The notes beneath the pieces were generated by a model that saw only the letters and a list, made by a program, of their open reading frames with translations, did not search any database and was not told where the DNA came from. From Minisyncoccota bacterium (GTDB lineage: Bacteria; Patescibacteriota; Minisyncoccia; Phycocordibacterales; CAJBRS01): a stretch of DNA of 64,000 nt. The stretch lies in the NCBI GenBank assembly GCA_017881075.1, contig JADGRH010000002.1, positions 21,654-85,653 of the forward strand, written 5' to 3'. This document shows, piece by piece, positions 2,429 through 40,085 of this stretch (the stretch's first letter is position 1; every line of letters begins with the position of its first letter). A program made the position numbers and the translations under genes.

Positions 2429-4123
2429 ATGCGTATACGGATCCTCTCAATCGGCATAATTATTTTTGCCCTCTTTCTGGCAAGCAAACTTTATTTAGTA
2501 CAGATTGTTCAAGGAAATGATTTTATCCAAAGAGCCGACAGACAATATGTCCAATCGCCTGATTCAATCTTCAGTCGCGGGGCGATTTATTTTACTGATA
2601 AAGACGGCACTTTAATTTCAGCGGCCACTTTAAAATCCGGTTTTACTCTAACTATTAACCCTCAAGTTCTCTCCAATCCGGAAGAGGCTTACAAGAAAAT
2701 CAGTGCCTTATTGCCGACCCTTGATCAGTCGGCTTTTTTGGTTAAAGCGGCCAAAAAAGCCGACACCTACGAAGAAGTGGCATTAAAGGTTGAATCCGAT
2801 GTTGGCACGGCCATCGATCAGTTGAAAATTCCAGGGGTCAATATTTATAAATCACAATGGCGATTCTATCCTGGCGATACTCTGGCCGCTCACGCTCTCG
2901 GCCTTGTGGCTTATAATCAAGACCAGTTGGCCGGCCGTTACGGTTTGGAGAGGACCTATGAAAATACCCTTTCCAGAACCAACGATGATGTTTATGTTAA
3001 TTTCTTTGCCGAAATATTTTCCAACATTGGCAAGACTATCTCGTCAAGTCAATCTCTGGAAGGAGACATAGTGACCACCATTGAACCGACCGTTCAGGCT
3101 ACTCTTCAAAACGAATTAGATGGTGTTAAGAAACAATATTCCTCGGATAGCGCAGGAGGTATCATCATCAATCCAAAGACCGGCGAAATTTATGCCATGG
3201 CTCTGACTCCGAGCTTCAATCCGAATTCCTTTCAAGATGAAAAAAGCTCGGCTGTTTTCAGTAACGACATAGTAGAAAATGTTCACGAAATGGGTTCCAT
3301 CGTCAAGCCTTTCACCATGGCTATCGGATTAGATACCGGCGTCATTAATGCCACTACCATGTATAACGATGTTGGCTCAATGACTGCAAACGGCAAAACC
3401 ATTCATAACTTCGACTTAAAAGGGCGCGGATATATTTCTCTCCAGGAAGCTCTGGGAAAGTCGCTGAACACCGGCTTTGCTTTTGCTGAAAGTAAGATTG
3501 GAAATAAGGATTTCTCTGATTATATGAAGAAGTTTGGATTGGGGGAGAAAACAGGTATTGATTTGCCGAACGAAACCTCCGGACTGATCAGTAACTTGGA
3601 CAGTCCGCGAGATATTGAGCATTTCACCGCCGCTTTCGGACAAGGAATCGCCATGAGTCCATTAGAGATGGTGCGAGCAGAAAGTGCCTTGGCTAACGGA
3701 GGCAATCTGATCACACCTCATCTGGTAAAACAGATTAATTATAAGTTAGGTCTGTCTAAAACTATTGACCCACCGGCAGGTCCTCGTGTGCTTAAGCCGG
3801 AGACATCGGAAGCCATCACTAAAATGTTGGTGGAAGATTTTGACACATACCTTCAAAATGGCAAAGCCAAGAATCCAAATTACAGCATCGCCGAAAAAAC
3901 CGGCACCGCTCAAATAGCACTGCCCTCCGGCAAGGGTTATTATAATGATCGCTATCTGCACTCTTTCTTTGGATATCTCCCGGCTTATAATCCGCAATTT
4001 TTAGTCTTCATGTATACTGTCTATCCCAAAGGTGTCCAATTTTCATCCGAAACATTAGCACCGGCATTTATTGATTTAACCAAGTTTTTAATTAATTATT
4101 ATCAGATACCGCCAGACCGATGA
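2429..4123 (+). CDS. ftsI: penicillin-binding protein 2 / FtsI-type transpeptidase
   Basis: 564 aa; N-terminal TM; SxxK (SIVKPF) and further transpeptidase motifs; dcw context. Confidence 0.8.
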   Translation: MRIRILSIGIIIFALFLASKLYLVQIVQGNDFIQRADRQYVQSPDSIFSRGAIYFTDKDGTLISAATLKSGFTLTINPQVLSNPEEAYKKISALLPTLDQSAFLVKAAKKADTYEEVALKVESDVGTAIDQLKIPGVNIYKSQWRFYPGDTLAAHALGLVAYNQDQLAGRYGLERTYENTLSRTNDDVYVNFFAEIFSNIGKTISSSQSLEGDIVTTIEPTVQATLQNELDGVKKQYSSDSAGGIIINPKTGEIYAMALTPSFNPNSFQDEKSSAVFSNDIVENVHEMGSIVKPFTMAIGLDTGVINATTMYNDVGSMTANGKTIHNFDLKGRGYISLQEALGKSLNTGFAFAESKIGNKDFSDYMKKFGLGEKTGIDLPNETSGLISNLDSPRDIEHFTAAFGQGIAMSPLEMVRAESALANGGNLITPHLVKQINYKLGLSKTIDPPAGPRVLKPETSEAITKMLVEDFDTYLQNGKAKNPNYSIAEKTGTAQIALPSGKGYYNDRYLHSFFGYLPAYNPQFLVFMYTVYPKGVQFSSETLAPAFIDLTKFLINYYQIPPDR

Positions 4124-8785: not shown

Positions 8786-8924
8786 CTGGTGTGGCCCGTA
8801 TCGCTCCTGCCCGACTTTCCTCCTCTGCTGACTCGGAAGAGTCGTTCACGAGCTCTCCGGGAACAACCTGGACGATTGGGTATTTCACAGCAGACCTATG
8901 GTGGTGCTGCTAATCCAGGTTCTA
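8786..8924 (+). repeat. 139-bp structured element, copy 1; 137/139 identical to copy 2 at 13072-13210
   Basis: direct repeat seen in the sequence; contains a GACTC-GGAA-GAGTC hairpin; intergenic. Confidence 0.9.
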
Positions 8925-8948
8925 ATTATAGCATGTTATAATAAGCCT

Positions 8949-13071: not shown

Positions 13072-13210
13072 CTGGTGTGGCCCGTATCGCTCCTGCCCGA
13101 CTTTCCTCCTCTGCTGACTCGGAAGAGTCGTTCACGAGCTCTCCGGGAACAACCTGGACGATTGGGTATTTCACAGCAGACCTATTGTGGTGCTGCTACT
13201 CCAGGTTCTA
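13072..13210 (+). repeat. 139-bp structured element, copy 2
   Basis: see copy 1; lies between the dnaB start and the cysS stop. Confidence 0.9.
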
Positions 13211-14609
13211 TTTGATAATCATTTCCCAAATCTTTAATTTCAAATCCAGCATCTAGGATCTTTTTTCGCAATTTATCAGCTTTTTCCCAATCCTTTTCTT
13301 TTCTGGCTTCTTCGCGTTCGTCGGCAAGTTTTGTAATTTCTGCAGGAATTTTGAAGTGAACGGGTTCCGCCAGTTTTTCTAAATCAAGACCGAGAACTCG
13401 GTCAAAATCTAAAATGGTGGCGCGTTTATCGGCGGGGGAGATACTCTCATCTTTTAATAAGTCCCAGACTAAGGCGAGAGCTTTGGGGGTATCCAGGTCG
13501 TCGTTGATAAAAGAGAGAAATTTTTGCTGGTGGCGAAGACTGATCATCCCTTGTCCCCGATCAGGATGAGCCACCCCGAGCAATTGCGAGGGGTAGCTTA
13601 TCTGACCCGCAAGTCGAGTCAGTGCCACTTGCGAGCCATTCAACGCTTCATAATTAAAATTGACCGGACTGCGATAATGCGAAGTCAGGAGCCAATAGCG
13701 ATAGGCGAGAGGACTGACACCTTTTTCTGTAATATCTTGCAGGCGCAAAAAGTTGCCTTGGGATTTTGCCATCTTACCTCCTTCTATAATAATGAAACCG
13801 TGGTGAAGCCAGTAATTTGCCAGAGGCTTTCCGGTGGCTGATTCGGATTGAGCAATCTCATTATTATGATGAATCGGAATATGATCCATTCCACCGGTAT
13901 GAATATCAAATGTCTCGCCAAGATATTTCATACTCATGGCCGAGCACTCAATGTGCCAACCAGGAAATCCTTTTCCCCACGGACTTTCCCAACCCAACTC
14001 CGAGCTGAACTTCCACAAAGCAAAATCTTCCGGATGCCGTTTCTCCGCATTGTGATGAATACGCGATTTCTCCACGTCGGTATCAGGAAAGACACCCCCC
14101 AACCTCCCATAATTTTTATCTTTTGAAGTATCAAAATAAACTCCGTCGGAAGTCGTATAAATAAAACCTTTTTCCTCCAGCTTTTTAATTAGGTCAATAT
14201 TGACATCAATATTCTCGCTAGCCTTCGGTAACATCGTCGGTTTTTCAATATTCAATTCGTCCAGGTTTTTCAAAAAAGCTTCAGTATAAAAATCAGCAAG
14301 ATGGCGCAAAGCTTCCATGGTCAACGGTTTGCCATCTCGTCTTAAAGCCGCCGTCATTTTGTCTTCTCCCTCGTCGGCGTCAGAACGCAAGTGGCCGATA
14401 TCGGTAATATTAATTACTTGAGTGACTTTAAATTGGTTATATTCCAAAGTTCGTCTTAAAACGTCGGCAAAAAGATATGATCGCAGATTACCGATATGAA
14501 CATAGTCATAAACAGTTGGCCCGCAATTATACATTTTGACCTCACCGTCTTTAATCGGTTTGAATATTTCTTTTTTACCAGAGAGAGTGTTGTGAAATCT
14601 AATTTCCAT
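13182..14609 (-). CDS. cysS: cysteine--tRNA ligase
   Basis: HIGN (class I HIGH) and KMAKSQGN (KMSKS) motifs; 475 aa. Confidence 0.9.
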
Positions 14610-15586: not shown

Positions 15587-16810
15587 ATGAATTCCGGTAA
15601 AAAAATTATCCCCGTTGTTATTGCCGTCCTCCTCCTGGGGGGCGCCTTTTTTCTGGGTATGTCGGTTGGGGTTAGTGCTCATCCGGCCATTCAAGACGTC
15701 ACCACCCTCTCCGGCAAAGAAACTGGCCAGCTGGCCACAGTTGATTTTTCTCCATTTTGGAAAGCCTGGAGTCTGATTAATGAGAAATATGTTGCCACTC
15801 ATTCTACCTCGACCGCTAGCGATCAGGAGAGGGTTTACGGGGCTATTAAAGGAATGGTGGATGCCTTGGGCGATCCTTACACCACTTTTTTTCCACCCGC
15901 CGACTCGGAAATTTTTCAGAGCGAGATAAGCGGTAATTTTGAAGGTGTCGGGATGGAAGTGGGGGAGAAGGATGGCGTTCTCGTCGTCATCGCTGCCCTG
16001 AAAAACACTCCAGCCGAGCGAGCCGGTATACAACCTGGGGATAAAATTCTGAAGATCAGTGACACCTCAACAGCTAATCTCAATGTGGACGAGGCGGTCA
16101 AAGTTATTCGTGGTAAGAAAGGCACTCCCGTCACCTTTACTATCTTGCGCGATCCGGTCAAAGATCCTTTTACGGTCAGCGTTATTCGTGACGTTATTAA
16201 TATACCGACTATTGATACAAAACTCCGACCGGATGGTGTTTTTGTAATTCAACTGTACAACTTCTCTGCTACCTCGCCCGATCTTTTCCGCAGTGCTTTG
16301 CGTCAATTTGTTAATTCTCATTCAGACAAATTAATTCTGGATCTGCGCGGCAATCCGGGTGGTTACTTGGAGGCGGCCGTAGATATGGCTAGTTGGTTTT
16401 TGCCAACCGGAAGTGTAGTGGTGACTGAAGATTATGGTAAAGGTAAAGATCAACAAATTTCTCGAAGTCGTGGATACAACATTTTCAATAAAGACTTAAA
16501 GATGGTCGTTTTGATCAATGGTGGATCGGCCTCCGCTTCGGAGATTTTAGCCGGTGCCTTAAGTGAACACGGCGTAGCCAAACTAGTAGGTCAGCAAAGC
16601 TTTGGTAAAGGCTCGGTTCAGGAATTGATCAATTTGACTCCTGACACTGCTCTCAAGGTGACTGTGGCGCGTTGGCTTACTCCAAACGGCAAATCCATTT
16701 CAAATGGGGGCCTTACTCCAGATGTTGAAGTAAAAATGACGGCGGAGGATGTCACGACCGGCAAAGATCCGCAAATGGAGGCGGCTGCAAATCTATTGCT
16801 AGGCAAGTGA
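15587..16810 (+). CDS. ctpA: carboxyl-terminal processing protease (S41, PDZ-containing)
   Basis: GNPGGYL and SASASEI S41 motifs, PDZ region, N-terminal TM. Confidence 0.8.
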   Translation: MNSGKKIIPVVIAVLLLGGAFFLGMSVGVSAHPAIQDVTTLSGKETGQLATVDFSPFWKAWSLINEKYVATHSTSTASDQERVYGAIKGMVDALGDPYTTFFPPADSEIFQSEISGNFEGVGMEVGEKDGVLVVIAALKNTPAERAGIQPGDKILKISDTSTANLNVDEAVKVIRGKKGTPVTFTILRDPVKDPFTVSVIRDVINIPTIDTKLRPDGVFVIQLYNFSATSPDLFRSALRQFVNSHSDKLILDLRGNPGGYLEAAVDMASWFLPTGSVVVTEDYGKGKDQQISRSRGYNIFNKDLKMVVLINGGSASASEILAGALSEHGVAKLVGQQSFGKGSVQELINLTPDTALKVTVARWLTPNGKSISNGGLTPDVEVKMTAEDVTTGKDPQMEAAANLLLGK

Positions 16811-16818
16811 AAAGAACG

Positions 16819-16895
16819 CGAAACCTACAACTTTTTTAGAGACTAAGACTTGGGCAAACGCCCCGGAGTGGTCTCTAAAAAAGTTCGTAGGTGAG
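16819..16895 (+). repeat. 77-nt extended-hairpin element, copy A; directly follows the ctpA stop
   Basis: CUUUUUUAGAGAC / GUCUCUAAAAAAG 12-13-bp stem plus outer ACCUAC/GUAGGU pairing and an inner GGGC-AAAC-GCCC mini-hairpin; identical to copy B. Confidence 0.85.
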
Positions 16896-16942
16896 AGTTC
16901 TTACTTGCCGGATCAATTTTAATAATTTATACTCCATAAATC

Positions 16943-17386
16943 ATGAAGGTTATATTTTTAAAAGATGTTGCCAATATTGCCAAGAAATATGAGGTAAAGA
17001 ACGTCTCGGACGGGCATGCTTTAAACCACCTTTTTCCTAATGGACTTGCTGAAATGGCTAACGATCAGACCTTAAAGAAGGTAGAAGAGATGAAAACCCA
17101 GCATGATCAGGAAAGAAAGATCCGTGAAGACTTATTAATGAAGAATCTAAATAATCTCTCTGGTATTCGCATTGAATTGAAAGAAGCTGCAAACGAGAAA
17201 GGTCACCTTTTTGCCGGCATTCACAAGCCGGAACTAGTTAAAGAAATCAAAAAACAAACTAATTTAGATGTAGATGAGGCTCATATTGATCTAGATCAAC
17301 CGATCAAAGCGGTGGGGGAATACGATATCAAAATAAAAGTTCAGGACAAAGAAGCCTCATTTAAATTGATTGTGGATAGTAAATAA
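16943..17386 (+). CDS. rplI: 50S ribosomal protein L9
   Basis: MKVIFLKDVANIAKKYEVKNVSDGHALNHLFPNGLA N-domain typical of L9. Confidence 0.85.
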   Translation: MKVIFLKDVANIAKKYEVKNVSDGHALNHLFPNGLAEMANDQTLKKVEEMKTQHDQERKIREDLLMKNLNNLSGIRIELKEAANEKGHLFAGIHKPELVKEIKKQTNLDVDEAHIDLDQPIKAVGEYDIKIKVQDKEASFKLIVDSK

Positions 17387-17391
17387 GACGG

Positions 17392-17468
17392 CGAAACCTA
17401 CAACTTTTTTAGAGACTAAGACTTGGGCAAACGCCCCGGAGTGGTCTCTAAAAAAGTTCGTAGGTGAG
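17392..17468 (+). repeat. 77-nt extended-hairpin element, copy B; directly follows the rplI stop and faces the rpmA stop
   Basis: identical to copy A. Confidence 0.85.
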
Positions 17469-17509
17469 CAGTTTTATTTACTCCTTAACTAATCTTTATA
17501 GAAAATTCA

Positions 17510-17782
17510 CTAGACAACGTTTACAATCTTGCGAACGGAGGTGGTATTGTCGTAGTTTTGCTTTCGTTTGTTTTTGAATTCCACCTTGCCGTTTTTGAGG
17601 GCAAAAAGAGTGTGGTCTTTACCAATGCCGACGTTCTTGCCAGGCATTACCTTAGTGCCCCTTTGGCGCACGATGATTGAACCGGTCTTAGCAACCTCGC
17701 CGTGGTAGAGCTTGACGCCCAGGAATTTTGGATTTGAGTCGGTCAGGTTTTTGGCTGATCCGCCCGCTTTTTTACTTGCCAT
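17510..17782 (-). CDS. rpmA: 50S ribosomal protein L27
   Basis: [16 protein letters not shown]...[10 protein letters not shown]...DHTLFAL conserved L27 blocks. Confidence 0.9.
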
Positions 17783-27808: not shown

Positions 27809-28960
27809 CTACTCTTTTGACGGTTTCTCATGATGATAATACTTCTTCCCTTTCAATTTCTCCGGCAAAAGGTCTTCTTTGGGGTAGCGTTCGTAGCCTT
27901 TGCCGTAGCCGAGGTCCTTCATGAGCTTGGTGGGGGCGTTACGAATGATCATTGGAATGGGAAGATTGCCAAATTTTTTGACGTCTTCGACTGCTCGGCC
28001 GTAGGCTTCGTAGGAAGCTTTGCTTTTGGGTTGACGGCAGAGATAGACTACGCCGTCAGCCAGATTGATAGCACATTCGGGCAGGCCGATAACCTCGACG
28101 GCCTTAAAGACTTCGTTCGCCACCACCAAGGCAGTTGGATTAGCTTGACCGATGTCTTCTGAGGCAAAGATCACCATTCGTCTTGCGATGAATTTAGGAT
28201 CTTCGCCGCTATCTAGCATGCGGGCCAGGTAATAAAGTGCCGCGTCCGGCTGGCTAGCTCGCATACTTTTAATAAAAGCGCTGATGATGTTGTAGTGCTC
28301 CTCCCCTTTCTTATCAAAACGAAGAAATTTATTCTGTAGAGTATCGGCCAAAGTCTTTGGAGTAATTTTCGAATAAAGTTTGGACGCGGCCTCCAACATA
28401 CTGATGGCTTGTCGGGCATCACCATTCGCCATGCCGATCAACCATTCCTTGGCTGCCTTCGAAAGTTTCATCTCCGTGCGGCCAATTATTTTCATCATCT
28501 CCTCGTCTGACAATTCATTCAAAATAAATACTCGACAACGCGATAGGAGCGCCGAGATCACTTCAAAGCTTGGGTTCTCGGTAGTAGCACCGACCAAGGT
28601 TATTTCGCCACTTTCAACATACGGCAGAAGAAAATCCTGTTGAGCTTTGTTGAAGCGATGAATTTCATCTAAAAATAAAAGTTTTGGTTTGGAGAGGAGA
28701 TTTTGTTTATCGACCAATTGCCTAATATCATCCTTTCCGGCCGATACAGCCGAGAGATGATGAAACTCTACATCCAAAGCTCTGGCATATATTTTGGCCA
28801 GCGTCGTCTTCCCCACTCCCGGCGGACCCCACAAAACAAATGAAAAGAGATGCTTTTCTTTTATGGCAATAGCCAAAGGCTTATCTTTGCCGACTAGATG
28901 CGACTGACCGACAAACTCCTTTAAATTCTTAGGCCGGATCCGAGAGGCTAGAGGTTCCAA
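27809..28960 (-). CDS. rarA: replication-associated recombination protein RarA/MgsA (AAA+ ATPase)
   Basis: Walker A GPPGVGKTTLA, Walker B LFLDEIHRF, C-terminal MgsA helical domain. Confidence 0.85.
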   Translation of the reverse strand: MEPLASRIRPKNLKEFVGQSHLVGKDKPLAIAIKEKHLFSFVLWGPPGVGKTTLAKIYARALDVEFHHLSAVSAGKDDIRQLVDKQNLLSKPKLLFLDEIHRFNKAQQDFLLPYVESGEITLVGATTENPSFEVISALLSRCRVFILNELSDEEMMKIIGRTEMKLSKAAKEWLIGMANGDARQAISMLEAASKLYSKITPKTLADTLQNKFLRFDKKGEEHYNIISAFIKSMRASQPDAALYYLARMLDSGEDPKFIARRMVIFASEDIGQANPTALVVANEVFKAVEVIGLPECAINLADGVVYLCRQPKSKASYEAYGRAVEDVKKFGNLPIPMIIRNAPTKLMKDLGYGKGYERYPKEDLLPEKLKGKKYYHHEKPSKE

Positions 28961-29100
28961 TTTTAGAGCAGACTAATCAGATAAAAACGGAATCGATTCT
29001 TCCAGATTCGGGCTAGGCTTCGGCGGAATCGTTTTTCTTTTGTTTGATAATCGTAGAACATGATTGTTTGTTAATTAATAAATATTTCACTCCTGCCCCA

Positions 29101-29160
29101 CTGCCTTTTTAGAGACCGCTCCGGGGCGCTTGCCCAAGTCTTAGTCTCTAAAAAAGCAGC
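29101..29160 (-). repeat. 77-nt extended-hairpin element, copy C (variant); directly downstream of the lexA stop on the same strand
   Basis: reverse complement matches copies A/B except the outer stem (GCUGC/GCAG) and two loop positions. Confidence 0.8.
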
Positions 29161-29171
29161 GTGGCATCCGT

Positions 29172-29738
29172 TCAATATTTTCGAATCACTGCTTTAACGA
29201 CCGCTACGATCCTCATATCATATTCCGGATAAATATTGCTGTAATTTTTATTGGCCGGCTGGAGATATGCTTTGCCATTCTTGTATCGCAGATATTTCAT
29301 TGTCCAACCACCGTCGACATCGGCGATGACAATATCTCCTTCCTTTGGATCATTCGTTCGCTTCACCAGTACCAAGTCCCCTTCGGTGATATGAGCGTCT
29401 ATCATAGAATCGCCTTTCACCTCAAGAAGATATGTGGAGTCTTTTTGATCCACCAGATATTCCTCCAAATTCAACGTATCTCCTCTGATTTCCTCCGCCG
29501 TCTCTGGAATACCGGCTTCCACTAAACCGAGAAGTGGAATTTCATCAAATATTTGATTGATGCTGATGCGCCCCTTAACGTCTTTATTCAATACTCCGGC
29601 TTCTACCAATTTGTTGATTAATTTAAAGACAGCGTTCTTTGATCTGAAACCAAAGATTCCCATCATCTCCTTGTAGCCCGGCAATCGGCCATGTTTGTGA
29701 TAGAAACTTACGATCTTATCTCTGTATTCTGTTTTCAT
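29172..29738 (-). CDS. lexA: LexA-like repressor (S24 peptidase)
   Basis: N-terminal winged HTH; C-terminal GDSM...VKAV (Ser-Lys dyad region). Confidence 0.75.
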   Translation of the reverse strand: MKTEYRDKIVSFYHKHGRLPGYKEMMGIFGFRSKNAVFKLINKLVEAGVLNKDVKGRISINQIFDEIPLLGLVEAGIPETAEEIRGDTLNLEEYLVDQKDSTYLLEVKGDSMIDAHITEGDLVLVKRTNDPKEGDIVIADVDGGWTMKYLRYKNGKAYLQPANKNYSNIYPEYDMRIVAVVKAVIRKY

Positions 29739-29888: not shown

Positions 29889-30746
29889 TTGAAAATTGAA
29901 AAGTTAGGAAACGACCAAAAACTTGGCCTCAAAAACGATGGCACTTTGGAAATTTTTTTCATCGGTGTGGGATCGGCATTCGCCATGAACCACAACCAGA
30001 CGAATCTACTACTAATAAAGGGCGACACCCATATTATGGTGGACTTCGGAATGACTGGTCCGAAAGCGCTCAAAGAAACTGCCCGTCTCGATGTAACCGA
30101 CCTTGAGGTCTTTCTGCCCACTCACTCTCATGCCGACCATGTCGGTGGATTCGAGTGCGCGGGACTTCTAAATCGATATAAAGGCCAGCCGTTCTTGAGA
30201 AGACCGAAGCTGCGCTGCATCATCACTCCTCCGTATCAGGAGATGTTGTGGGATATGAGCCTGCGTGGCGGAATGGAGTGGAACGAGCAGGAACACGATT
30301 CCCAAAAGACTCTGTCATTCCCCGATTTCTTCGTGCCCGTTCGTCCGACTTGGATGGAGCTCCAGCCGCGAGAGATTTACGAGATCGATTTCGAGGGCAT
30401 CCACCTCGAGATGTTTCGGACAAAGCACATTCCAAGCATGGCTTCAAGTTGGCAGAGATCCTTCTTCAGTATTGGTCTCTTCGTCGACAGGCGCATCTTT
30501 ATCTCAATGGATACTCGGTTTGACCCTGATCTCATCGATATGTATGCAGACAGATCGGAAGTGATGTTCCATGATGTTCAGTTTTTCCCAGACACGGTCC
30601 ACGCGCCGCTCGCAGACCTAAAAACTCTGCCGGAAGACATTAAGCGCAAAATGCATCTGATGCACTATGCCGACGACTTCGAGACACAAGACATCACTGG
30701 TTTTGCCGGATGGACGCAACAAGGGGTTCGCTACATCTTTGATTGA
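29889..30746 (+). CDS. metallo-beta-lactamase fold hydrolase (TTG start)
   Basis: HSHADHVGG (HxHxDH) motif; GAAAGGA RBS-like sequence upstream. Confidence 0.65.
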   Translation: MKIEKLGNDQKLGLKNDGTLEIFFIGVGSAFAMNHNQTNLLLIKGDTHIMVDFGMTGPKALKETARLDVTDLEVFLPTHSHADHVGGFECAGLLNRYKGQPFLRRPKLRCIITPPYQEMLWDMSLRGGMEWNEQEHDSQKTLSFPDFFVPVRPTWMELQPREIYEIDFEGIHLEMFRTKHIPSMASSWQRSFFSIGLFVDRRIFISMDTRFDPDLIDMYADRSEVMFHDVQFFPDTVHAPLADLKTLPEDIKRKMHLMHYADDFETQDITGFAGWTQQGVRYIFD

Positions 30747-33215: not shown

Positions 33216-33252
33216 GAGAATATTATAAACTATATTGTCTCGATATCACTGA

Positions 33253-33321
33253 TGGACGTGACGGGAATCGAACCCGTTCACTCCGAATGGTAGGTTCGGA
33301 GCGCTATCCAATAGCACGCCC
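33253..33321 (-). ncRNA. non-canonical tRNA-like gene 2 (69 nt); paralog of gene 1 with compensatory changes
   Basis: same architecture as gene 1; the 7-bp stem is CTCCGAA/TTCGGAG (was CCTCAAA/TTTGAGG) with the identical loop CCTACCA. Confidence 0.5.
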
Positions 33322-33406
33322 ATGATGTGAATTACCGTTCCACATCGACATAAATAATACATACAGCTAATAAAATAGATTGAAATAAAAGTTAAATTAA
33401 AAATAA

Positions 33407-33426
33407 AAACCGCATTTCTGCGGTTT
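33407..33426 (-). terminator. intrinsic terminator hairpin (AAACCGCA-TTTC-TGCGGTTT)
   Basis: seen directly; equivalent to 24332-24351. Confidence 0.65.
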
Positions 33427-33431
33427 TACTA

Positions 33432-33447
33432 GCTCCGAACCTACCAC
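33432..33447 (+). other. copy of the anticodon-arm 5' strand of tRNA-like gene 2 (GCTCCGAACCTACCAC), inverted relative to the gene
   Basis: complement of the corresponding segment in gene 2; covaries with module head A. Confidence 0.8.
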
Positions 33448-33453
33448 AACATA

Positions 33454-33481
33454 ATTATATTTCTTTACTTTATTTTGTCAA
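33454..33481 (-). promoter_or_regulatory. near-consensus sigma70 promoter on the minus strand (TTGACA-16-TATAAT), module head B
   Basis: identical to the promoter at 24379-24406. Confidence 0.6.
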
Positions 33482-33503
33482 AGCTTTTTATTTAAAAATT
33501 CTA

Positions 33504-33550
33504 CGTCGAAAGTCTGCTGATTTCGACGCGATTTTTACGCTTAAAAATCG
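33504..33550 (+). other. two adjacent perfect hairpins 5' of repeat R7
   Basis: identical to 24429-24475. Confidence 0.8.
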
Positions 33551-33578
33551 GCTGGGGGTCTGGTACGATGTTGGAACC
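33551..33578 (+). repeat. repeat R7 (consensus)
   Basis: seen directly. Confidence 0.9.
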
Positions 33579-33728
33579 TTTTTGACGAGTTTTACCCCCT
33601 AAGACCTTAAGATTCAATCCCTACCCACGGAGTAATTTATTTGACTTTCTAAGTATAGTATGGTAATGTTATCTTGAAACATTCCAATTGCAGGTAGCAA
33701 AAAACTTGCATAACCCGAGGACATTTAC

Positions 33729-34103
33729 ATGACCAAGAAAGTTCTTAAATTGCTGATTCTCGTCTCTATAGTGACTGTTGCCTTCATTGGCGGCCGTCTC
33801 ACCACTCCTCAGCCTCAAGTCGCTGACAATGCTGTGTATGAAAAAGCATGGCATTGGTGTGATGAACAAGCATTCAAGGGGCACGACGTAGCCTTCTTTG
33901 AACTTGCAAAGAAACAGATTCGAGCTCGCCAGATTCGCTGGAGCATCAACGATTCATCAGGGCTTCATTACAGCCTTCTCGTCTTGTTCGCCAAAAGCTA
34001 CGATGAGATGGTCGAGAGAGAATCCGTGACCCCCGAGGAGTTCGTTAAGCAAATAGCACCTGTTCTGAAGGAGTTAGCCAAGGCTCCTCGACCCTCAACT
34101 TGA
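33729..34103 (+). CDS. hypothetical secreted protein (cassette ORF)
   Basis: signal-peptide-like N-terminus; TTGACT-17-TAATGT promoter-like sequence upstream. Confidence 0.45.
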   Translation: MTKKVLKLLILVSIVTVAFIGGRLTTPQPQVADNAVYEKAWHWCDEQAFKGHDVAFFELAKKQIRARQIRWSINDSSGLHYSLLVLFAKSYDEMVERESVTPEEFVKQIAPVLKELAKAPRPST

Positions 34104-34168
34104 CCGCTTCAGTGCGAGACAAAAGCCAAACTGTCTTACGATGGGGCGGCTTTTTATTTAAATTCCTC

Positions 34169-34228
34169 GCTGTGGGTCTGGCCCGCCTGCCTAGCTACCG
34201 CAGGTGCGGGCAGGTACGATGTTGGAAC
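34169..34228 (+). repeat. repeat R8, carrying the 33-bp GC-rich hairpin insertion CCCGCCTGCCTAGCTACCGCAGGTGCGGGCAGG between TCTGG and TACGAT
   Basis: seen directly. Confidence 0.85.
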
Positions 34229-34300
34229 TTTTATTACCCACTTTCATGCTATTGACAAAATTACCACAATAAGGTATTATTCAGATAGGAAAGGACAAAT

Positions 34301-34495
34301 ATGAAAGAAGGTATTCTACTTCTCTTCCCCGTTCTCGGGCTGATTCCGCTTGTAGCCATGCTACTCTGGATCAAAAAGAAACAGGGTAAGGGACTGATGA
34401 TTCTCCTTAGCATCTTGATCTTTGCTGCCATTGTTTGGGCGTGTGTTCATTACCAAATCCGAATTTACGATAACGGCGGCTTGGGACTTTACTAA
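34301..34495 (+). CDS. small membrane protein (cassette ORF)
   Basis: 64 aa, two TM segments, terminator follows. Confidence 0.35.
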   Translation: MKEGILLLFPVLGLIPLVAMLLWIKKKQGKGLMILLSILIFAAIVWACVHYQIRIYDNGGLGLY

Positions 34496-34565
34496 GCGAG
34501 ATTCATTCCAACACGAGACGAGCTCTGACCACACAAGTCATCTCGTTTTTTATTTAAAATTCCTA

Positions 34566-34612
34566 CGTCGAAAGTCTGCTGATTTCGACGCGATTTTTAG
34601 GCTTAAAAATCG
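34566..34612 (+). other. two adjacent hairpins (third copy of the module-head leader) 5' of repeat R9
   Basis: the second hairpin loop is GGCT instead of CGCT. Confidence 0.8.
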
Positions 34613-34640
34613 GCTGGGGGTCTGGTACGACGTTGGAACC
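34613..34640 (+). repeat. repeat R9 (ACGACG variant)
   Basis: seen directly. Confidence 0.9.
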
Positions 34641-35482
34641 TATTTGACTGTAAAAATATCACTCACTAGCGAGGAATTATCAGAGAAATTTATATCTAAA
34701 TGATAAGCTCCAGGAGAAATACTCGTTGGAACCATCCAAACATAGGATTCCCCATGTACTCCAGCAGCAATTTTTGTTGGAATAGTGTCATGAAAATTGT
34801 CTTTAGGTTCAGCCTTCAGAAATATATCCGCGGTGTAATTATCTTCGGATGGCTTAGCCAACCATTTTAAAGTATAAGTTTGACCTCTAATAAATTCCGC
34901 TGCTACTTCAGGAAAAACAAATCTAGGATATGGAAAAAGTACTTCGTTAAGAGATACTTCTCCAACATACGGTAAAGTCAATTTTGAAACTAAATTGCCC
35001 TTAAGATCGTACCCTTGAATGTCTACTTTTGATACATGGATACCAACGGCAGATTCTAAAGCATTCCAATACCAGGATTGAGTTCCATCAAGCGCTGTGG
35101 CTTGCAGTTGTGCTGATCCTAATTGTTGAGATTGAGTTATCCCTGTTCCGGTTGGCCAACCATATATCTTTACACTCGCTAACCCTTTTCCATATATAAA
35201 CAGTTCAGGTTTACTTATTGTAAACTTTAAGAGAAAAGGTGTCACAGACACTGAAACGGTAGTAGTTGCAAAAGAATTAACTTGGGAATTGGTAGACGAG
35301 TTGTTTGAAGTAGATATTGTATTAAGCTGATCAGTAAATGTGGTTGAAGCTGTTAAAGAGACGCCATTATTTACTTGAGCACTTTTATTATGAATGTAAA
35401 TGTAAATTCCTCCGCCAATCGCCAAAGCAACAATAATGATAATCAAAAAAGGAACAACAAATCCTTTTTGGATATTTTTCAT
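34640..35482 (-). CDS. hypothetical secreted/anchored protein (cassette ORF)
   Basis: 280 aa, N-terminal TM, Ser/Thr-rich. Confidence 0.5.
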   Translation of the reverse strand: MKNIQKGFVVPFLIIIIVALAIGGGIYIYIHNKSAQVNNGVSLTASTTFTDQLNTISTSNNSSTNSQVNSFATTTVSVSVTPFLLKFTISKPELFIYGKGLASVKIYGWPTGTGITQSQQLGSAQLQATALDGTQSWYWNALESAVGIHVSKVDIQGYDLKGNLVSKLTLPYVGEVSLNEVLFPYPRFVFPEVAAEFIRGQTYTLKWLAKPSEDNYTADIFLKAEPKDNFHDTIPTKIAAGVHGESYVWMVPTSISPGAYHLDINFSDNSSLVSDIFTVK

Positions 35483-35516
35483 AATTAAAATGATATCACG
35501 AAATTAGCATTTTCTC

Positions 35517-35634
35517 GCTGGGGGTTTGGCCCGCCTGCCTAGCTACCGCAGGTGCGGACAGGTACGATACTCCCTGTTTGTTCAAGAGGCCTTGCGATTG
35601 ACTACAAACAGCAGTCCCCGTAGGGGGTTGGAAC
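35517..35634 (+). repeat. repeat R10, carrying both the 33-bp hairpin insertion and a 58-bp second insertion
   Basis: the second insertion, ACTCCCTGTTTGT...ACAAACAGCAGTCCCCGTAGGGG, is homologous to part of the R1 insertion. Confidence 0.85.
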
Positions 35635-35710
35635 TTTTTTGATGAGTTTTGGTACTTGACATAATACAGATATGTCATAAAGTCATATCAGAAATCAACT
35701 GGAAATACTT

Positions 35711-35947
35711 ATGGCACTAGCAACTACTCAAGGAAAAGAATTCGCCCTGAAAGCTCTTGGGGAAAGACGAGATCGTAACAAAACACGAGAACGAATCGAC
35801 AATACGGCATTACTCGCGGGTAGAGAAATGCATTTTGACTGCCTCGGCTGTGGGGATGACCTCATTGTCCCCGAAAATTATCTCAGGCGACCGAATTTAT
35901 GCGTGGAGTGTCAAGCACTCAAAACGTTGGGTTGGCTTGATCAATAA
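35711..35947 (+). CDS. hypothetical zinc-ribbon protein (CLGCG...CVEC)
   Basis: 78-aa ORF. Confidence 0.4.
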   Translation: MALATTQGKEFALKALGERRDRNKTRERIDNTALLAGREMHFDCLGCGDDLIVPENYLRRPNLCVECQALKTLGWLDQ

Positions 35948-35998
35948 GTATCAAGCGTTCCGTTAGCCGTCCTGTTGTGGCGGCATTTTATTTTTCTT

Positions 35999-36025
35999 GC
36001 TGGGGGTCTGGTACGATGTTGGAAC
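35999..36025 (+). repeat. repeat R11
   Basis: seen directly. Confidence 0.9.
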
Positions 36026-36052
36026 TTTTTTGGGAAATCGCTCAGAAAGTAG

Positions 36053-36430
36053 CTATAAATAGGTTCGGAGTTGTTCAACCGCACTATCAATTAATTCATC
36101 GTCGGGTACCACTTTTTCTAAAGCATCATAGATTGTAACTAGGCACTGAACCGCATCAGTTACCTTATCATTTGGATTCGGACCGAATTTACTTTCCAAG
36201 AAATGAACGACGTTGTTTTTCTCAATCGCTTCTATAATTTCTGTTCTTTCTTTTTCCATGTCCGCCTTCTCTGCAACGGTATGTTCTCCGCCAAGTGTTG
36301 CTCTAGGTGGTGTAGTCTGAAACAAATAGCTTTCCCTTAAGAGGGGCGTGACAAGGTTTCGAAATATTGGAGCACTCTCTGTAGAAGAGGTAACGCCATC
36401 ATTTTCTATTTCTCTTTCACGAAAAGTCAT
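36053..36430 (-). CDS. hypothetical protein (cassette ORF)
   Basis: 125-aa ORF. Confidence 0.45.
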   Translation of the reverse strand: MTFREREIENDGVTSSTESAPIFRNLVTPLLRESYLFQTTPPRATLGGEHTVAEKADMEKERTEIIEAIEKNNVVHFLESKFGPNPNDKVTDAVQCLVTIYDALEKVVPDDELIDSAVEQLRTYL

Positions 36431-36475
36431 AAATTTATAGTAGTAAAACTAGTAAATAAAAGCAAGATGTTTGAT

Positions 36476-36503
36476 GCTGGGGGTCCGGTACGATGTTGGA
36501 ACC
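36476..36503 (+). repeat. repeat R12 (TCCGG variant)
   Basis: seen directly. Confidence 0.9.
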
Positions 36504-36559
36504 TACATGACAGATAGACAAATAAAGCAAGGTGTGGTAAAAGTTATCACAGGTAAAAC

Positions 36560-36799
36560 ATGAGTGACGAAAACAAATGCAGTAATTGTGAGGCGCTCAG
36601 CAAGAGCAATTCGACAAAGCCAGCTGTACCCATGAATGGGACATGCAACGACATCTTGCATGAATGTCCTCTGGACGGACAGAAATGGTGGCAAATGAAT
36701 ACCCACTTTCATCTGTGGCAGAAAGTCAAAGATGACAAGCAATGGGAAGCGTTAAGAGAGGACCTTCGGCGACCGGTACAATCTGGTCACTTCTGGTAG
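36560..36799 (+). CDS. hypothetical Cys-rich protein (CSNC...C..C)
   Basis: 79-aa ORF. Confidence 0.4.
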   Translation: MSDENKCSNCEALSKSNSTKPAVPMNGTCNDILHECPLDGQKWWQMNTHFHLWQKVKDDKQWEALREDLRRPVQSGHFW

Positions 36800-36859
36800 G
36801 AAATGAATTTGGAGAGCTCGGATGACAACCCCTGCTCTCTTTTTATTTAAAAATTCCTC

Positions 36860-36887
36860 GCTGGGGGTCTGGTACGATGTTGGAACC
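36860..36887 (+). repeat. repeat R13 with the full extended context
   Basis: seen directly. Confidence 0.9.
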
Positions 36888-36951
36888 TTTTTAATGAATT
36901 TAAGCCATCAAATACCTAGGTTCGATACCTGCTCACCGAGTTTTGAAATAT

Positions 36952-37311
36952 CTATTCACCATCTCTAATTAAACGCACAAAGTAAGTCATTCCCTTTCCT
37001 ATATTTTGAGCTCTTTTATACCCAATCCCCATTAAAACTATATTAGCCATAACAGGTGGCTTTCCTTGATCTAAAATAACTGACTCCTCTGAAGCCCAGT
37101 AAGCACCTTCTTTAAAACCTTTTGTCTTTAATCTATCCGCCTCAAGAAGTTCCTCTGATGTAGGAAGTCTCCAAGGTTTTTCTCCTTCTGGTAGATTAGT
37201 GTTTAACTCTTCAATTATTCTGATGGCATCATCCCAATTTATACGAGTATCTATATCAATACCCCACTCTGACTTTAAGCTTTCTTGATTTGGAGTTCCT
37301 TCATTTTCCAT
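36952..37311 (-). CDS. DUF1566 (Lcl C-terminal domain)-like protein
   Basis: W-x-A...KPWRLPTSEEL pattern typical of the family. Confidence 0.45.
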   Translation of the reverse strand: MENEGTPNQESLKSEWGIDIDTRINWDDAIRIIEELNTNLPEGEKPWRLPTSEELLEADRLKTKGFKEGAYWASEESVILDQGKPPVMANIVLMGIGYKRAQNIGKGMTYFVRLIRDGE

Positions 37312-37346
37312 ATCTATTTATCATACCAAAAAAGTTCTAATAATTT

Positions 37347-37374
37347 GCTGGGGGTCTGGTACGATGTTGGAACC
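37347..37374 (+). repeat. repeat R14
   Basis: seen directly. Confidence 0.9.
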
Positions 37375-37391
37375 TTTGTTAGGATTTAGAC

Positions 37392-37706
37392 ATGGAATTC
37401 TTTCGTGAATCAGAACTAGATAAATTAATAAAAGAGCGAAATTCTAATGGCTGGGTTATGGCTGGATATGAGAAGTTAACAGTAACGAGGTTTCAGCCCG
37501 ATGCCAGATTTTTAGACGTGCCACTTCAGAGTGAAGATGATATAAAGAAAAAATATAAAAATGATGATACAGAAGTAGAACTAGTTTTAGCACCAAATCA
37601 TAAGTTAGAAGAAATTAGAAAAATACTTTCCCCTGAAGAATTTGCCAAAGCCTCTGTTCCTGATAGTGAGAAATCTTATTACGTATTCGTAAAAAAGAAA
37701 AATTGA
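37392..37706 (+). CDS. hypothetical protein (cassette ORF)
   Basis: 104-aa ORF. Confidence 0.45.
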   Translation: MEFFRESELDKLIKERNSNGWVMAGYEKLTVTRFQPDARFLDVPLQSEDDIKKKYKNDDTEVELVLAPNHKLEEIRKILSPEEFAKASVPDSEKSYYVFVKKKN

Positions 37707-37708
37707 TT

Positions 37709-37736
37709 GCTGGGGGTCTGGTACGATGTTGGAACC
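37709..37736 (+). repeat. repeat R15
   Basis: seen directly. Confidence 0.9.
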
Positions 37737-38020
37737 TATTTAGACTCTTTATTCATTTCGTCTCTCTCGAGTGCGTCCCCATCAATTGCGTCCAATAATT
37801 GACCCAACTCAACATTGCTCCAATCTTTATAAACGGATTTTTGCTGATTTTCATTGTCAGCTCCACGACTCCAAGCCTCAATGTCATTTCTTGTTTTTGT
37901 GTATATTTCGGGACTTATCTTCCTTACAGTTGCTAATTGCCTTACTTTTTCCCAAAATTCGTCAGTAGAAATCTCAGCCATATTTTCTATTTCATTTGGA
38001 TCATTTTCTCTTGATTCCAT
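37736..38020 (-). CDS. hypothetical acidic protein (cassette ORF)
   Basis: 94-aa ORF. Confidence 0.4.
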   Translation of the reverse strand: MESRENDPNEIENMAEISTDEFWEKVRQLATVRKISPEIYTKTRNDIEAWSRGADNENQQKSVYKDWSNVELGQLLDAIDGDALERDEMNKESK

Positions 38021-38126
38021 AAGGATAATTTAAGTTATGTTTAATATTTTTATTATACCAGATTCACCCGTCCTATTCTTATCTATTTTTAAATGGCTAA
38101 TCTAAAAGAGATTTTAATGCTTCCTC

Positions 38127-38154
38127 GCTGGGGGTCTGGTACGACGTTGGAACC
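38127..38154 (+). repeat. repeat R16 (ACGACG variant)
   Basis: seen directly. Confidence 0.9.
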
Positions 38155-38169
38155 TTTTTGACCTGAGTG

Positions 38170-38388
38170 CTATGCCTTACGCCATTGATTTGGCTTTCCC
38201 TTGTTAGTATGCCGAACTCGCTCAACGTCAGGTCGTACGCCCGGAAAAAGCTTTTGAGCTTTAGCTATAGCTTTTGCCTGCGTAGGAGCAACAACGGAAG
38301 CGCGCTTTGAGTGTTCTTGCCTCACAGCATAATCTTTCTCTTCTGATCGTCGTTCTATGTATACATCTCCCTTTCTTAATTTAGTCAT
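38170..38388 (-). CDS. DUF2188-like small protein
   Basis: DVYIERRSEEKDYAVRQEHSKRAS...TQAKAIAKAQKL pattern resembles DUF2188. Confidence 0.45.
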   Translation of the reverse strand: MTKLRKGDVYIERRSEEKDYAVRQEHSKRASVVAPTQAKAIAKAQKLFPGVRPDVERVRHTNKGKPNQWRKA

Positions 38389-38394
38389 AGCGAT

Positions 38395-38751
38395 TTAATT
38401 AATATGATTCGCCTCCGCTTGTTGTTTTGCTAATTCATTAATGGCAATTATGTTTGCGCCAAACCCTGTTCTATAATGTTTACTCCGAGAGCTCCTTTTG
38501 AACAAAAACTTAGTAATTTTCTCTCTACCTACTAACGGTGCAATCTTTTTATCTTTTCTAGGGTCGTCCCACATTGAAACTACTTCCCACCCCACAGCAC
38601 CCAACTCGTTCAGCATTAAGTTAAAATATTCTCTTTTGTGTTCTAAATTCTTGTATTCTTTTGAGTCGTAGTCATGCTCATCAAACTCTTCGTTGCTAGG
38701 ATTGAACATCCCGTGTACTAAGTACTCAAAACTCTGATCTAGAAATTTCAT
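38395..38751 (-). CDS. hypothetical protein
   Basis: 118-aa ORF, 6 bp downstream of the previous gene. Confidence 0.45.
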   Translation of the reverse strand: MKFLDQSFEYLVHGMFNPSNEEFDEHDYDSKEYKNLEHKREYFNLMLNELGAVGWEVVSMWDDPRKDKKIAPLVGREKITKFLFKRSSRSKHYRTGFGANIIAINELAKQQAEANHIN

Positions 38752-38774
38752 AACATTGAGTATACCAAATTCTT

Positions 38775-38806
38775 TTGACGGATGTCTGGGACAACATTGG
38801 GACCCA
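38775..38806 (+). repeat. degenerate repeat R17 (GACGGATGTCTGGGACAACATTGGGACCC)
   Basis: about 65% identity to the consensus in the expected position. Confidence 0.6.
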
Positions 38807-38825
38807 TTAGAGACATAGAATTTAA

Positions 38826-39035
38826 TTAATTTATTTCTTCAGCCTTCTCGCCGTACAACTTCATACTTTGAGCCTGTAAAGCTTCCAACGAATTATACTG
38901 ACCAACTACCTTCATTGGGGTCAAATATGGCAAATGATGTGAGGTTCTATCGTCTTCCATTTCATAGATAGGATGTATTAGAATGAAATCATCGCCCATT
39001 TTTCTGTAGCAAGGTTTAGCTAAGGGTTGTGTCAT
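38826..39035 (-). CDS. hypothetical protein
   Basis: 69-aa ORF. Confidence 0.35.
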   Translation of the reverse strand: MTQPLAKPCYRKMGDDFILIHPIYEMEDDRTSHHLPYLTPMKVVGQYNSLEALQAQSMKLYGEKAEEIN

Positions 39036-39076
39036 ATCTAAACTCTACAATAAAAAATAATGTTTAAAAAGTGTGG

Positions 39077-39104
39077 GCTGGATGTCTGGTACGATGTTGG
39101 AACC
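39077..39104 (+). repeat. repeat R18 (GCTGGATGTCTGG variant)
   Basis: seen directly. Confidence 0.85.
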
Positions 39105-39135
39105 TGTTTGTATCAAAAGTGATATAATCAGAAAT

Positions 39136-39591
39136 ATGACTGATAATAAAGAAAATACAGGCGTAACACTGACACCAGCTCAAACTGTTGATCTATTAAT
39201 GAGGCTTTATGATGCTAGATTTAACTATATGCCAGATGGCACTGTTCAAATTGATGTTAAAGTGCAAAATCTTATAGAAGAACTTGCGACAAACGCCGAA
39301 AAATCTTTTGGTCATGTAAAAGATGCTCAAGGAAAGAGTGTTTTTGGTGAGGCTTACGAGAAATATCGTAAAGGTCAAGATGCTATATTAAAAATCAGCG
39401 ATTTAGTAGTTTTAAATCCTAATGCTACGGCTTCTGATAAACAAGTTCATATAGAAAAAATATTAAAACTTAGTGAGACTGTAACAGGTAGATTATTCAT
39501 TCAACAAAGTATAGATGAATTTAAGACCGTAACGGGAGTCGATTTGAGTGAAAATATTAAAGCAATTCAAAAACTTTCTGACCATAAATAA
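39136..39591 (+). CDS. hypothetical protein (cassette ORF); start moved downstream of the repeat
   Basis: the ORF track opens at 39073 inside the repeat; MTDNKENT is the first Met after it. Confidence 0.45.
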   Translation: MTDNKENTGVTLTPAQTVDLLMRLYDARFNYMPDGTVQIDVKVQNLIEELATNAEKSFGHVKDAQGKSVFGEAYEKYRKGQDAILKISDLVVLNPNATASDKQVHIEKILKLSETVTGRLFIQQSIDEFKTVTGVDLSENIKAIQKLSDHK

Positions 39592-39647
39592 TTTTGTTAT
39601 AAATTACAATGTATAATCAGTTAAATTAACAAGCTATGTTTGCAACA

Positions 39648-39673
39648 CTGTGGGTCTGGTACGATGTGGAACC
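39648..39673 (+). repeat. repeat R19 (CTGTGGGTCTGGTACGATG-TGGAACCC; 1-nt deletion)
   Basis: seen directly. Confidence 0.8.
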
Positions 39674-39686
39674 CATATCAATAATT

Positions 39687-40004: not shown

Positions 40005-40046
40005 ACGTTATTAGTTATTATATCAAGATTCTAATTTGAAAATACT

Positions 40047-40076
40047 GCGTTGGGGGTTTGGGACGACGCTGGATCC
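40047..40076 (+). repeat. degenerate terminal repeat R20 (GCGTTGGGGGTTTGGGACGACGCTGGATCC)
   Basis: seen directly; last copy of the array. Confidence 0.7.
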
Positions 40077-40085
40077 TTTTTGAGG

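Follow-up and report, generated by a model that had tools for sequence, protein, structure and literature searches.

Palindromic repeats with a conserved tip and site-specific arms behind genes of Candidatus Paceibacterota: a candidate interspersed repeat family

The stretch of DNA analyzed here (hereafter, the window) comprises 64,000 nt of the Minisyncoccota contig JADGRH010000002.1 and contains three copies of an imperfect hairpin element, located behind a ctpA-like protease gene (W1), behind rplI (W2) and behind a lexA-like gene (W3) (Table 1). Homologues of its L9 protein assign the organism to Candidatus Paceibacterota, a lineage of the candidate phyla radiation (CPR). The best reading of the results is that these copies are members of a hitherto undescribed family of repeats in this lineage: at least 7 other genomes or strains of Paceibacterota were found to carry the 43-nt core of the element, at about 17 distinct sites. 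With moderate confidence, we interpret the element as an interspersed palindromic repeat, akin to repetitive extragenic palindromic (REP) sequences and miniature inverted-repeat transposable elements (MITEs), in which the tip is conserved and the arms are specific to the site; it would act as a terminator or another 3' hairpin, and its arms would be shaped by template switching.

The 52-nt inner part of the hairpin is found in the window at 16832–16883 and 17405–17456 on the plus strand without mismatches and at 29104–29155 on the minus strand with 3 mismatches. The dinucleotide-shuffled window contains no matches, such that none are expected by chance, and the three copies noticed in a first-pass annotation, which had been made from the sequence alone, are confirmed. 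The details of that annotation that concern the window copies are also borne out: those behind ctpA and rplI share an identical stretch of about 78 nt and remain similar enough to be aligned over 95 nt, and the copy behind lexA replaces the outer stem ACCUAC/GUAGGU with GCUGC/GCAG while keeping the GGGC/GCCC mini-hairpin. The RNA folds of the window copies have energies of −40 to −44 kcal/mol, which corresponds to z-scores of −6.4 to −8.0 against shuffled sequences. Beyond the inner stem, these hairpins extend as imperfect palindromes of 32–39 nt per arm, with about 75–78% of the positions paired, and the outer arms of all three run into the last codons and the stop codon of the upstream gene; in W1, the outermost pairing joins GGCAAGT, from the last ctpA codons, to ACTTGCC.

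Outside the window, the databases were scanned with the exact pattern TTAGAGAC...GTCTCTAA, which retrieved 2 contigs of metagenome-assembled genomes (MAGs) from GTDB (L001 and L002) and 6 metagenome loci (L003–L008); further relatives that carry the core were reached via the flanking genes, and the resulting sample of sites is small. The assemblies with the element include GCA_903958115.1 (I-1_bin-176), JAHFLU01 and the SESA01/SESF01 contigs. Across the family, the core consists of TTAGAGAC, the 27-nt apex TAAGACTYGGGCAARCGCCCCGGAGYG and GTCTCTAA; the stem variants are CAGAC, GGAGAC and GAGAG, and one divergent copy reads TAAGGCTTGGCCTAGCGGCCACGTGCG. The apex is asymmetric, holds a GC-rich mini-hairpin and is closed by the GAGAC/GTCTC stem. 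Each core lies exactly at the center of a palindrome that is specific to its site, with arms that are perfect over 20–38 nt and extend to about 40 nt if a few mismatches are allowed. Arm sequences vary from site to site, and all they have in common is T(1-6)AGAGAC along with a weak CCT. The 77-nt unit delineated in the first-pass annotation holds within the window, whereas in the family as a whole only the 43-nt core is conserved, together with the weak CCT...AGG. An inner-arm subfamily, AAACC(C)TAC, unites W1 and W2 with the clpP copies of L016 and L024. In the alignment of the cores, 98.8% of the cells are paired, and double changes are found at 12 pairs, including the change of GGGC/GCCC to GGCC/GGCC inside the apex.

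A Hamming scan of 235 kb detected apex copies with up to 7 mismatches exclusively at the tips of palindromes, with no isolated copies. The loci of one genome, the MAG I-1_bin-176 (genome A), contain 7 copies (in L002, L003, L005 and L008, about 44 kb) along with six plain palindromic terminators that have 3–6-nt loops and the same style of A-tract and T-tract, so that roughly half of the terminator-like palindromes in these loci carry the tip. No matches were obtained in viral contigs with two patterns, and no description of the element was found in the searchable literature, including searches with the apex sequence itself and other sequence strings.

The apex of W3 is identical in all 27 positions to copies in L004, L007, L008, L009 and L016. 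The window and L004 have LexA proteins with an identity of only 61%, while the apices of W3 and of the L004 copy behind lexA match in 27 of 27 positions, which points to a putative sequence-specific partner. Variation in the apex is confined to positions 8, 15, 22 and 26 and consists of transitions only; positions 15 and 26 change jointly, being either G and C or A and T, and the two resulting subtypes (AAGC/GCG and AAAC/GTG) coexist both in the window and in genome A. The divergent variant retains both stems through compensatory change and also keeps the bases of the internal loop. The plus-sense strand folds better than its complement by 5–10 kcal/mol. These features of the sequences suggest sequence-specific recognition of one folded strand, or of the duplex, by a putative partner; because the orientation of the apex changes within populations, its function is unlikely to depend on the mRNA strand.

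The enrichment at gene 3' ends, on which the first-pass annotation had made its interpretation depend, is apparent at every one of the sampled sites: the palindrome overlaps a stop codon or lies 0–24 nt away from it or, in L007, starts 5 nt after a tRNA-Phe gene. The stop codon is overlapped or touched in the three window copies and in L003a (clpP), L003b and L016 (both tig), L004b, L005b (the convergent HIT and pgk genes) and L008a (rplL); the distance is 4–24 nt in L001, L002, L004a (the lexA orthologue), L005a and L008b. Five sites are located between convergent genes. Among the copies in tandem contexts, 6 have the orientation of the upstream gene and 3 the opposite one, and near-identical strains can differ in the orientation of the apex, so the constant co-orientation proposed in the first-pass annotation describes the three window copies but not the family. 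A T-tract (at least 6 T in an 8-nt window that starts 15–27 nt after the apex) follows a stem of 14–26 bp in 10 of 16 copies, and the symmetry of the palindrome implies a T-tract on the other strand as well. These copies are built like a bidirectional intrinsic terminator whose tip is enlarged and structured.

In related genomes, the sites of two of the three copies are empty. The gene order CorA-ctpA-rplI-rpmA is kept in L009 (87% identity of the L9 protein) and in L010 and L011 (75%). The spacer between ctpA and rplI is 132 nt long in the window, compared to 27 nt (L009) and 20 nt (L011) in two relatives that lack a palindrome there; W1 is therefore a 99-nt insertion (16811–16909) that starts right after the stop codon. 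The site between lexA and the mgsA-like gene similarly has no palindrome in L014 and L015 (78% identity of LexA), where the stop codon and the conserved motif ATGTWYTACGATTATCAAAC serve as anchors, so that W3 is an insertion of about 90 nt. Between rplI and rpmA, L009 has an element orthologous to W2, in which the inner arms (CCTGCAAC/GTTGCAGG) are similar, the stem (TTTAAAACAGAC/GTCTGTTTTAAA) is compensated, the outer arms match the end of the rplI gene of L009 itself, and the apex is inverted relative to W2. The same site in L011 is occupied by an ordinary GC-rich palindromic terminator. Of the two sites, only that of W2 is also occupied in L009; given the identity of the two copies over 78 nt, W2 is older and W1 is a recent copy located 573 nt away. 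The unit that moved from W2 to W1 took in about 20 nt of arm on each side.

The motif ATGTWYTACGATTATCAAAC is an observation in its own right. It is conserved in three species (window 29043–29062, minus strand; L014 ~3100–3120; L015 ~3115–3137) within a spacer that is otherwise not alignable, and could represent a short leader open reading frame (ORF) or an operator.

The borders of 16 copies and the two empty sites show no consistent direct target-site duplication, and the similarity between the flanks is inverted. The dinucleotide TA is frequent beside the core without being general, and AAATATT at W3 is itself palindromic. Two routes to new sites can be envisaged. Insertion of a whole hairpin behind a stop codon, with the module seeding the palindrome, fits the empty sites of W1 and W3 and the AAACC(C)TAC subfamily. 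Insertion of a tip into the loop of an existing palindromic terminator fits the comparison of L023 with L016 at the site between rsmE and tig and the hairpin of L010 at the W1 site, which is long and different from W1. At the rsmE–tig site, long palindromes start 0–1 nt after the tig stop codon in three lineages and have related outer arms, and their tips differ, being canonical, divergent and an unrelated 16-nt sequence, respectively; in the relative P0243 (81% identity of RsmE), the spacer is 55 nt long, too short for a full hairpin. Long palindromes with other centers thus occupy the same kind of gene-end site, namely, the one in L010 (2875–2975), with a 37-nt center TTCTGGCCTGCGCGAACTCGTCTGTAAATTTTACTTC and arms that begin with GCCGTCTC, and the one in L023 (~985–1065), with the 16-nt tip GGTTGGGTGGGTCTGG; other tip families may exist in Paceibacterota.

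The arms evolve in a concerted manner. The outer arms at the clpP 3' site are common to genome A and a species with 86.8% DNA identity, and 8 of the 36 arm positions differ between the two; all 8 differences are mirrored in the opposite arm, and both palindromes are perfect over 36 nt. Between L003 and L020 (98.1% identity), there is a single mirrored pair of arm changes, A to C and T to G, an arrangement with a probability of about 0.5% for two random differences. L016 and L018, with 99.5% identity and no difference in the encoded RsmE protein, have apices in opposite orientations, and flipped apices are also seen in the comparison of W2 with L009 and in L024. Template switching at inverted repeats is documented to lead to homogenization of arms, inversion of the spacer and expansion of the repeat (PMC8604942, PMC8794818, PMC13100816). 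The compensated multi-site arm changes and the spacer inversion between close relatives match these published signatures. An outward growth of the arms that halts where coding constraint begins would explain why they end at or just inside stop codons. An apparent tracking of the apex orientation by arm composition (A/C-rich on the left, T/G-rich on the right) was dismissed because a perfect palindrome reads alike on both strands.

W1 is located between the ctpA stop codon and a promoter-like site of rplI (−35 hexamer, 17 nt, TATACT) that is conserved in L009 (~1880–1915) and L010 (~2970–2998). In the window, the −35 hexamer is formed by the W1 hairpin at its right end; it is TTGCCG within the last ctpA codons in L009, where the site is empty, and is TTGATA just after the other hairpin in L010. 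Either arm of W1 may have served as the template for the other.

Between clpP and rsmE, some of the relatives carry a cassette that resembles a diversity-generating retroelement (DGR) and includes an RVT_1 reverse transcriptase, bAvd and a 229-residue protein without a Pfam match (L016 837–3325; L017 558–3045; L018 1016–2516). The cassette is present in the 86% relative and absent from genome A. A link between the DGR and the repeat element was rejected given that genome A carries elements at the same sites without a DGR.

Taken together, the interpretation of the element as an interspersed palindromic repeat implies a sequence of steps. Small hairpin units are copied to new sites right after stop codons, as shown by the copying of W1 from W2 and by the absence of W1 and W3 from relatives. 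Template switching during replication at the inverted repeat would then homogenize the arms, extend them up to the coding sequence and flip the apex; here the pattern itself is observed, and the proposed mechanism derives from published work. The resulting hairpin may act as a bidirectional transcription terminator or as a stem-loop that protects the 3' end, in which case insertions behind genes would be tolerated or even favored. The apex, in turn, would be kept constant by a putative sequence-specific partner of the folded strand or of the duplex, for example, an enzyme that moves the module.

Several observations weigh against this interpretation. The role in termination is inferred from position and sequence only: whereas the T-rich tract behind the stem in 10 of 16 family members makes the role of terminator or 3' stabilizer proposed in the first-pass annotation plausible, the window copies, L001, L004b, L008b and L009 have no T-tract. 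No U-tract terminator was called at W1 and W2, in agreement with the original remark that a canonical U-tract is lacking, and the effect of the hairpin there may be limited to pausing of transcription or protection of 3' ends. In the material surveyed, we found no mobilizing enzyme, no target-site duplication and no sharp boundary of the element, and the data fit both routes to new sites, loop insertion and palindrome seeding. Because the scans required an exact match, variants are under-sampled and the sample is biased. Finally, in a single orthologous pair, the apex is identical in 26 of 27 positions at a background divergence of 13%, which is not significant when taken alone (P ~0.12).

The combination of a conserved tip with site-specific arms sets the element apart from the systems it resembles. 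The REP and REPIN sequences of Enterobacteria and Pseudomonas have conserved stems with an invariant 5' GTAG and are found beside a gene for a REP-associated tyrosine transposase (RAYT). Like the element described here, they are short, extragenic, multi-copy palindromes behind genes that are thought to form 3' hairpins or terminators and to fold as single strands. In our family, by contrast, it is the tip that is conserved and the stems that are site-specific, and GTAG(G) is present only in W1 and W2 and in the clpP arms of L016 and L024. Accordingly, the description of the element as REP-like in the first-pass annotation is apt inasmuch as it is repeated, extragenic, palindromic and located at gene 3' ends, but does not extend to the features that define REPs, the invariant GTAG and the conserved arms. 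No RAYT-type gene was found among the proteins scanned or in the gene tables of the examined loci, whole genomes being outside this survey.

MITEs, such as the Correia/NEMIS elements of Neisseria, have conserved terminal inverted repeats, a variable center and a direct target duplication such as TA. The resemblance lies in their being small, non-coding, interspersed intergenic elements with inverted ends that form co-transcribed hairpins and can supply parts of terminators or promoters (here, the −35 hexamer at W1). The differences are that here the center is conserved, the flanks are mutually inverted copies without a consistent direct duplication, and the unit of 43–78 nt is below the typical size of a MITE. 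The shared 8–12-bp repeat T(n)AGAGAC/GTCTCTA(n), with the stem variants listed above, closes the conserved center rather than the ends of the element. The scan of 235 kb, which was not genome-wide, revealed no half-sites or insertion sequence-like genes that have these ends.

The inverted repeats that evolve by template switching under the Ripley model (PMC8604942, PMC8794818, PMC13100816) share with our element the homogenization of arms, inversion of the spacer and extension of the arms. The published cases are confined to single loci and have spacers of 2–7 nt, compared to the structured 27-nt spacer that is common to many loci and genomes here. Template switching alone does not explain such a shared module.

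The likeness to bidirectional intrinsic terminators, including those formed by pairs of uptake sequences in Neisseria and Haemophilus, consists in the succession of A-tract, stem and T-tract and in the location at convergent or tandem gene ends. Ordinary terminators have loops of 3–8 nt with no common loop sequence, and the window copies further differ from them in the lack of a T-tract.

Several other motifs were checked by eye and rejected. Integron attC sites are not a match given that AAC...GTT is present only in W1, W2 and L009, the other outer arms lack R''(RYYYAAC)...R'(GTTRRRY), and the flanks are housekeeping genes in conserved synteny. A kink-turn is incompatible with the unbulged strand, which has AG instead of GA beside the stem; a bacterial selenocysteine insertion sequence (SECIS) is incompatible with copies that follow TAA as well as TGA; a twister-like ribozyme has no Rfam match; and a type IIS GAGAC/GTCTC site as a functional part is missing in the GAGAG/CTCTC variant.

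Among the alternatives, we consider rather doubtful a scenario in which the 43-nt core itself is the mobile module, a mobile terminator tip. A putative sequence-specific enzyme would put the core behind stop codons or into terminator loops, and the stem would then be built or enlarged by fold-back (template-switch) copying of the flank, giving rise to inverted rather than direct target duplications.

Less probable is that the apex serves the cell as a signal at the level of DNA, such as a site for a recombinase or HUH enzyme, a DNA-uptake signal, or a mark for replication or segregation, with the hairpin being secondary. The conservation of the full 27-nt sequence, loops included, across distant genomes would be expected of such a signal, and so would terminator locations, given that the uptake sequences of Neisseria and Pasteurellaceae sit in terminators and that CPR bacteria are believed to rely on the uptake of DNA; the function would have to tolerate either orientation relative to genes. 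Unlike uptake sequences, every copy of the apex is at the tip of a palindrome, as the scan of 235 kb indicated, the density in the window is low (3 copies per 64 kb), and no candidate protein was found. In addition, one strand folds better than the other and the T-G wobble positions are conserved, which speaks for a single strand in folded form and not for a duplex site.

We deem it comparably improbable that the apex is a neutral passenger in the loops of terminators that recently spread by horizontal transfer among related CPR bacteria and by gene conversion, so that its conservation would merely reflect youth. The coexistence of two subtypes within genomes and their being common between genomes is what spreading subfamilies would produce; furthermore, divergence is faster in the arms beside the apex than in the surrounding sequence, and most of the perfect arms look young. 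Against this stands the occupancy of the clpP 3' site in three lineages (72–86% identity of RsmE) and of the rplI site in two, which implies that copies outlast speciation with the apex remaining within 1–3 changes; in addition, the divergent variant keeps both stems via compensatory changes along with the loop bases.

Still less likely is a strand-specific structured RNA, either a cis element of the 3' untranslated region or a small RNA, the apical loops of which bind a protein or another RNA. The very stable fold, the conserved internal loop and tetraloop, the one compensatory change in the mini-stem, the constant covariation of apex positions 15 and 26 and the co-orientation of the window copies with the upstream genes are compatible with such an RNA. 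The covariation of the arms, however, is explained by the symmetry of the DNA palindrome, and the linkage of positions 15 and 26 amounts to two haplotypes at positions 11 nt apart. The 6 to 3 split between co-oriented and anti-oriented copies in tandem contexts and the polymorphic orientation at one site within a species are not expected of a strand-specific molecule; given that the orientation is not fixed, the small RNA suggested in the first-pass annotation is not supported. The element also has no promoter of its own, and the Rfam scan proposed in that annotation gave no match to it in release 15 at gathering thresholds, with the whole window scanned; at E ≤ 10, positions 16780–17500 yielded only noise, namely, miRNA precursors with scores of 16–18 bits against cut-offs of at least 100.

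An artefact of assembly or library preparation, that is, a hairpin adapter or a fold-back chimera, was rejected: contigs from three independent short-read assemblies do end inside the 27-nt apex (the end of L013, at 4356, the start of L016 and both ends of L024), and the AGAGAC/GTCTCT stem bears a loose resemblance to the Tn5 mosaic end, but the element is present in independent NCBI, ENA, JGI and Logan assemblies from differing samples and assemblers, the gene order runs on at both sides, the arms extend for only 20–40 nt and are followed by unique sequence, and the variants evolve, as seen in compensated changes, subtypes and the decayed arms in the window. The apex repeat seems to be a point at which assemblies of these genomes recurrently break.

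Table 1. Copies of the element in the window and the genes and signals around them (window coordinates).
Feature	Position	Strand	Evidence and remarks
W1, whole imperfect hairpin 3' of the ctpA-like gene	16801–16909	+	sequence, fold, repeat search, empty-site comparison
W1, 43-nt core (TTAGAGAC-apex-GTCTCTAA)	16836–16878	+	27-nt apex 16844–16870, AAAC/GTG subtype
W2, whole imperfect hairpin between convergent rplI and rpmA	17378–17482	+	left arm takes in the rplI codons AGT AAA TAA
W2, 43-nt core	17409–17451	+	apex 17417–17443; same sequence as the W1 core
W3, whole imperfect hairpin 3' of the lexA-like gene	29080–29180	-	arm takes in AAATATTGA, the end of lexA
W3, 43-nt core	29109–29151	-	apex 29117–29143, AAGC/GCG subtype
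ctpA-like S41/PDZ protease gene	15587–16810	+	directly upstream of W1
Promoter-like site of rplI, TTGCCG-17 nt-TATACT	16905–16933	+	−35 hexamer is the right end of the W1 hairpin
rplI (ribosomal protein L9)	16943–17386	+	between W1 and W2
rpmA (ribosomal protein L27)	17510–17782	-	convergent with rplI across W2
mgsA/rarA-like AAA+ gene	27809–28960	-	downstream of W3
lexA-like S24 peptidase gene	29172–29738	-	directly upstream of W3

The window contains several other features of potential interest. The lexA-like gene is adjoined by a gene for a metallo-beta-lactamase-fold protein with a precomputed Pfam match to the Anti-Pycsar protein Apyc1 (window 29889–30746, plus strand; L013 2737–3594). 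A motif of about 30 nt, GCTGGGGGTCTGGTACGATGTTGGAACCTTTTT, is present in 18 copies that are 360–650 nt apart, in two blocks at 25453–27392 and 33550–40091 where the genes are mostly on the minus strand. These copies separate small, unrelated ORFs (a Ser_hydrolase, an Lcl_C-like protein and several without a Pfam match), such that the array looks like a gene-cassette array, attC-like and similar to clusters of attC sites lacking integron-integrases (CALIN), or else a family of shared leaders. The two blocks are bordered by a direct repeat of 300 nt with 88% identity (24173–24472 and 33248–33547); another direct repeat, of 142 nt with 98% identity, is located at 8786–8927 and 13072–13213. A LOOT RNA (Rfam RF03000) was identified at 41920–42039 on the minus strand, with a score of 82 bits against the gathering threshold of 46.4.

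If our interpretation is correct, the element represents a new repeat family for CPR bacteria (Patescibacteria), the non-coding DNA of which is almost uncharacterized. The architecture, in which the center is conserved and the arms are site-specific, is the reverse of that of REPs and MITEs. It would also be an unusually clean bacterial example of template switching that keeps long palindromes perfect, extends them into the ends of coding sequences and flips the spacer, and such arm growth would have consequences for C-terminal codons and for promoters, as illustrated by the −35 hexamer of rplI. Given that the element breaks short-read assemblies, with three contigs ending in the apex, knowledge of it could help to close CPR genomes. 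Finally, the strict conservation of the apex points to a putative protein or enzyme that could be looked for.

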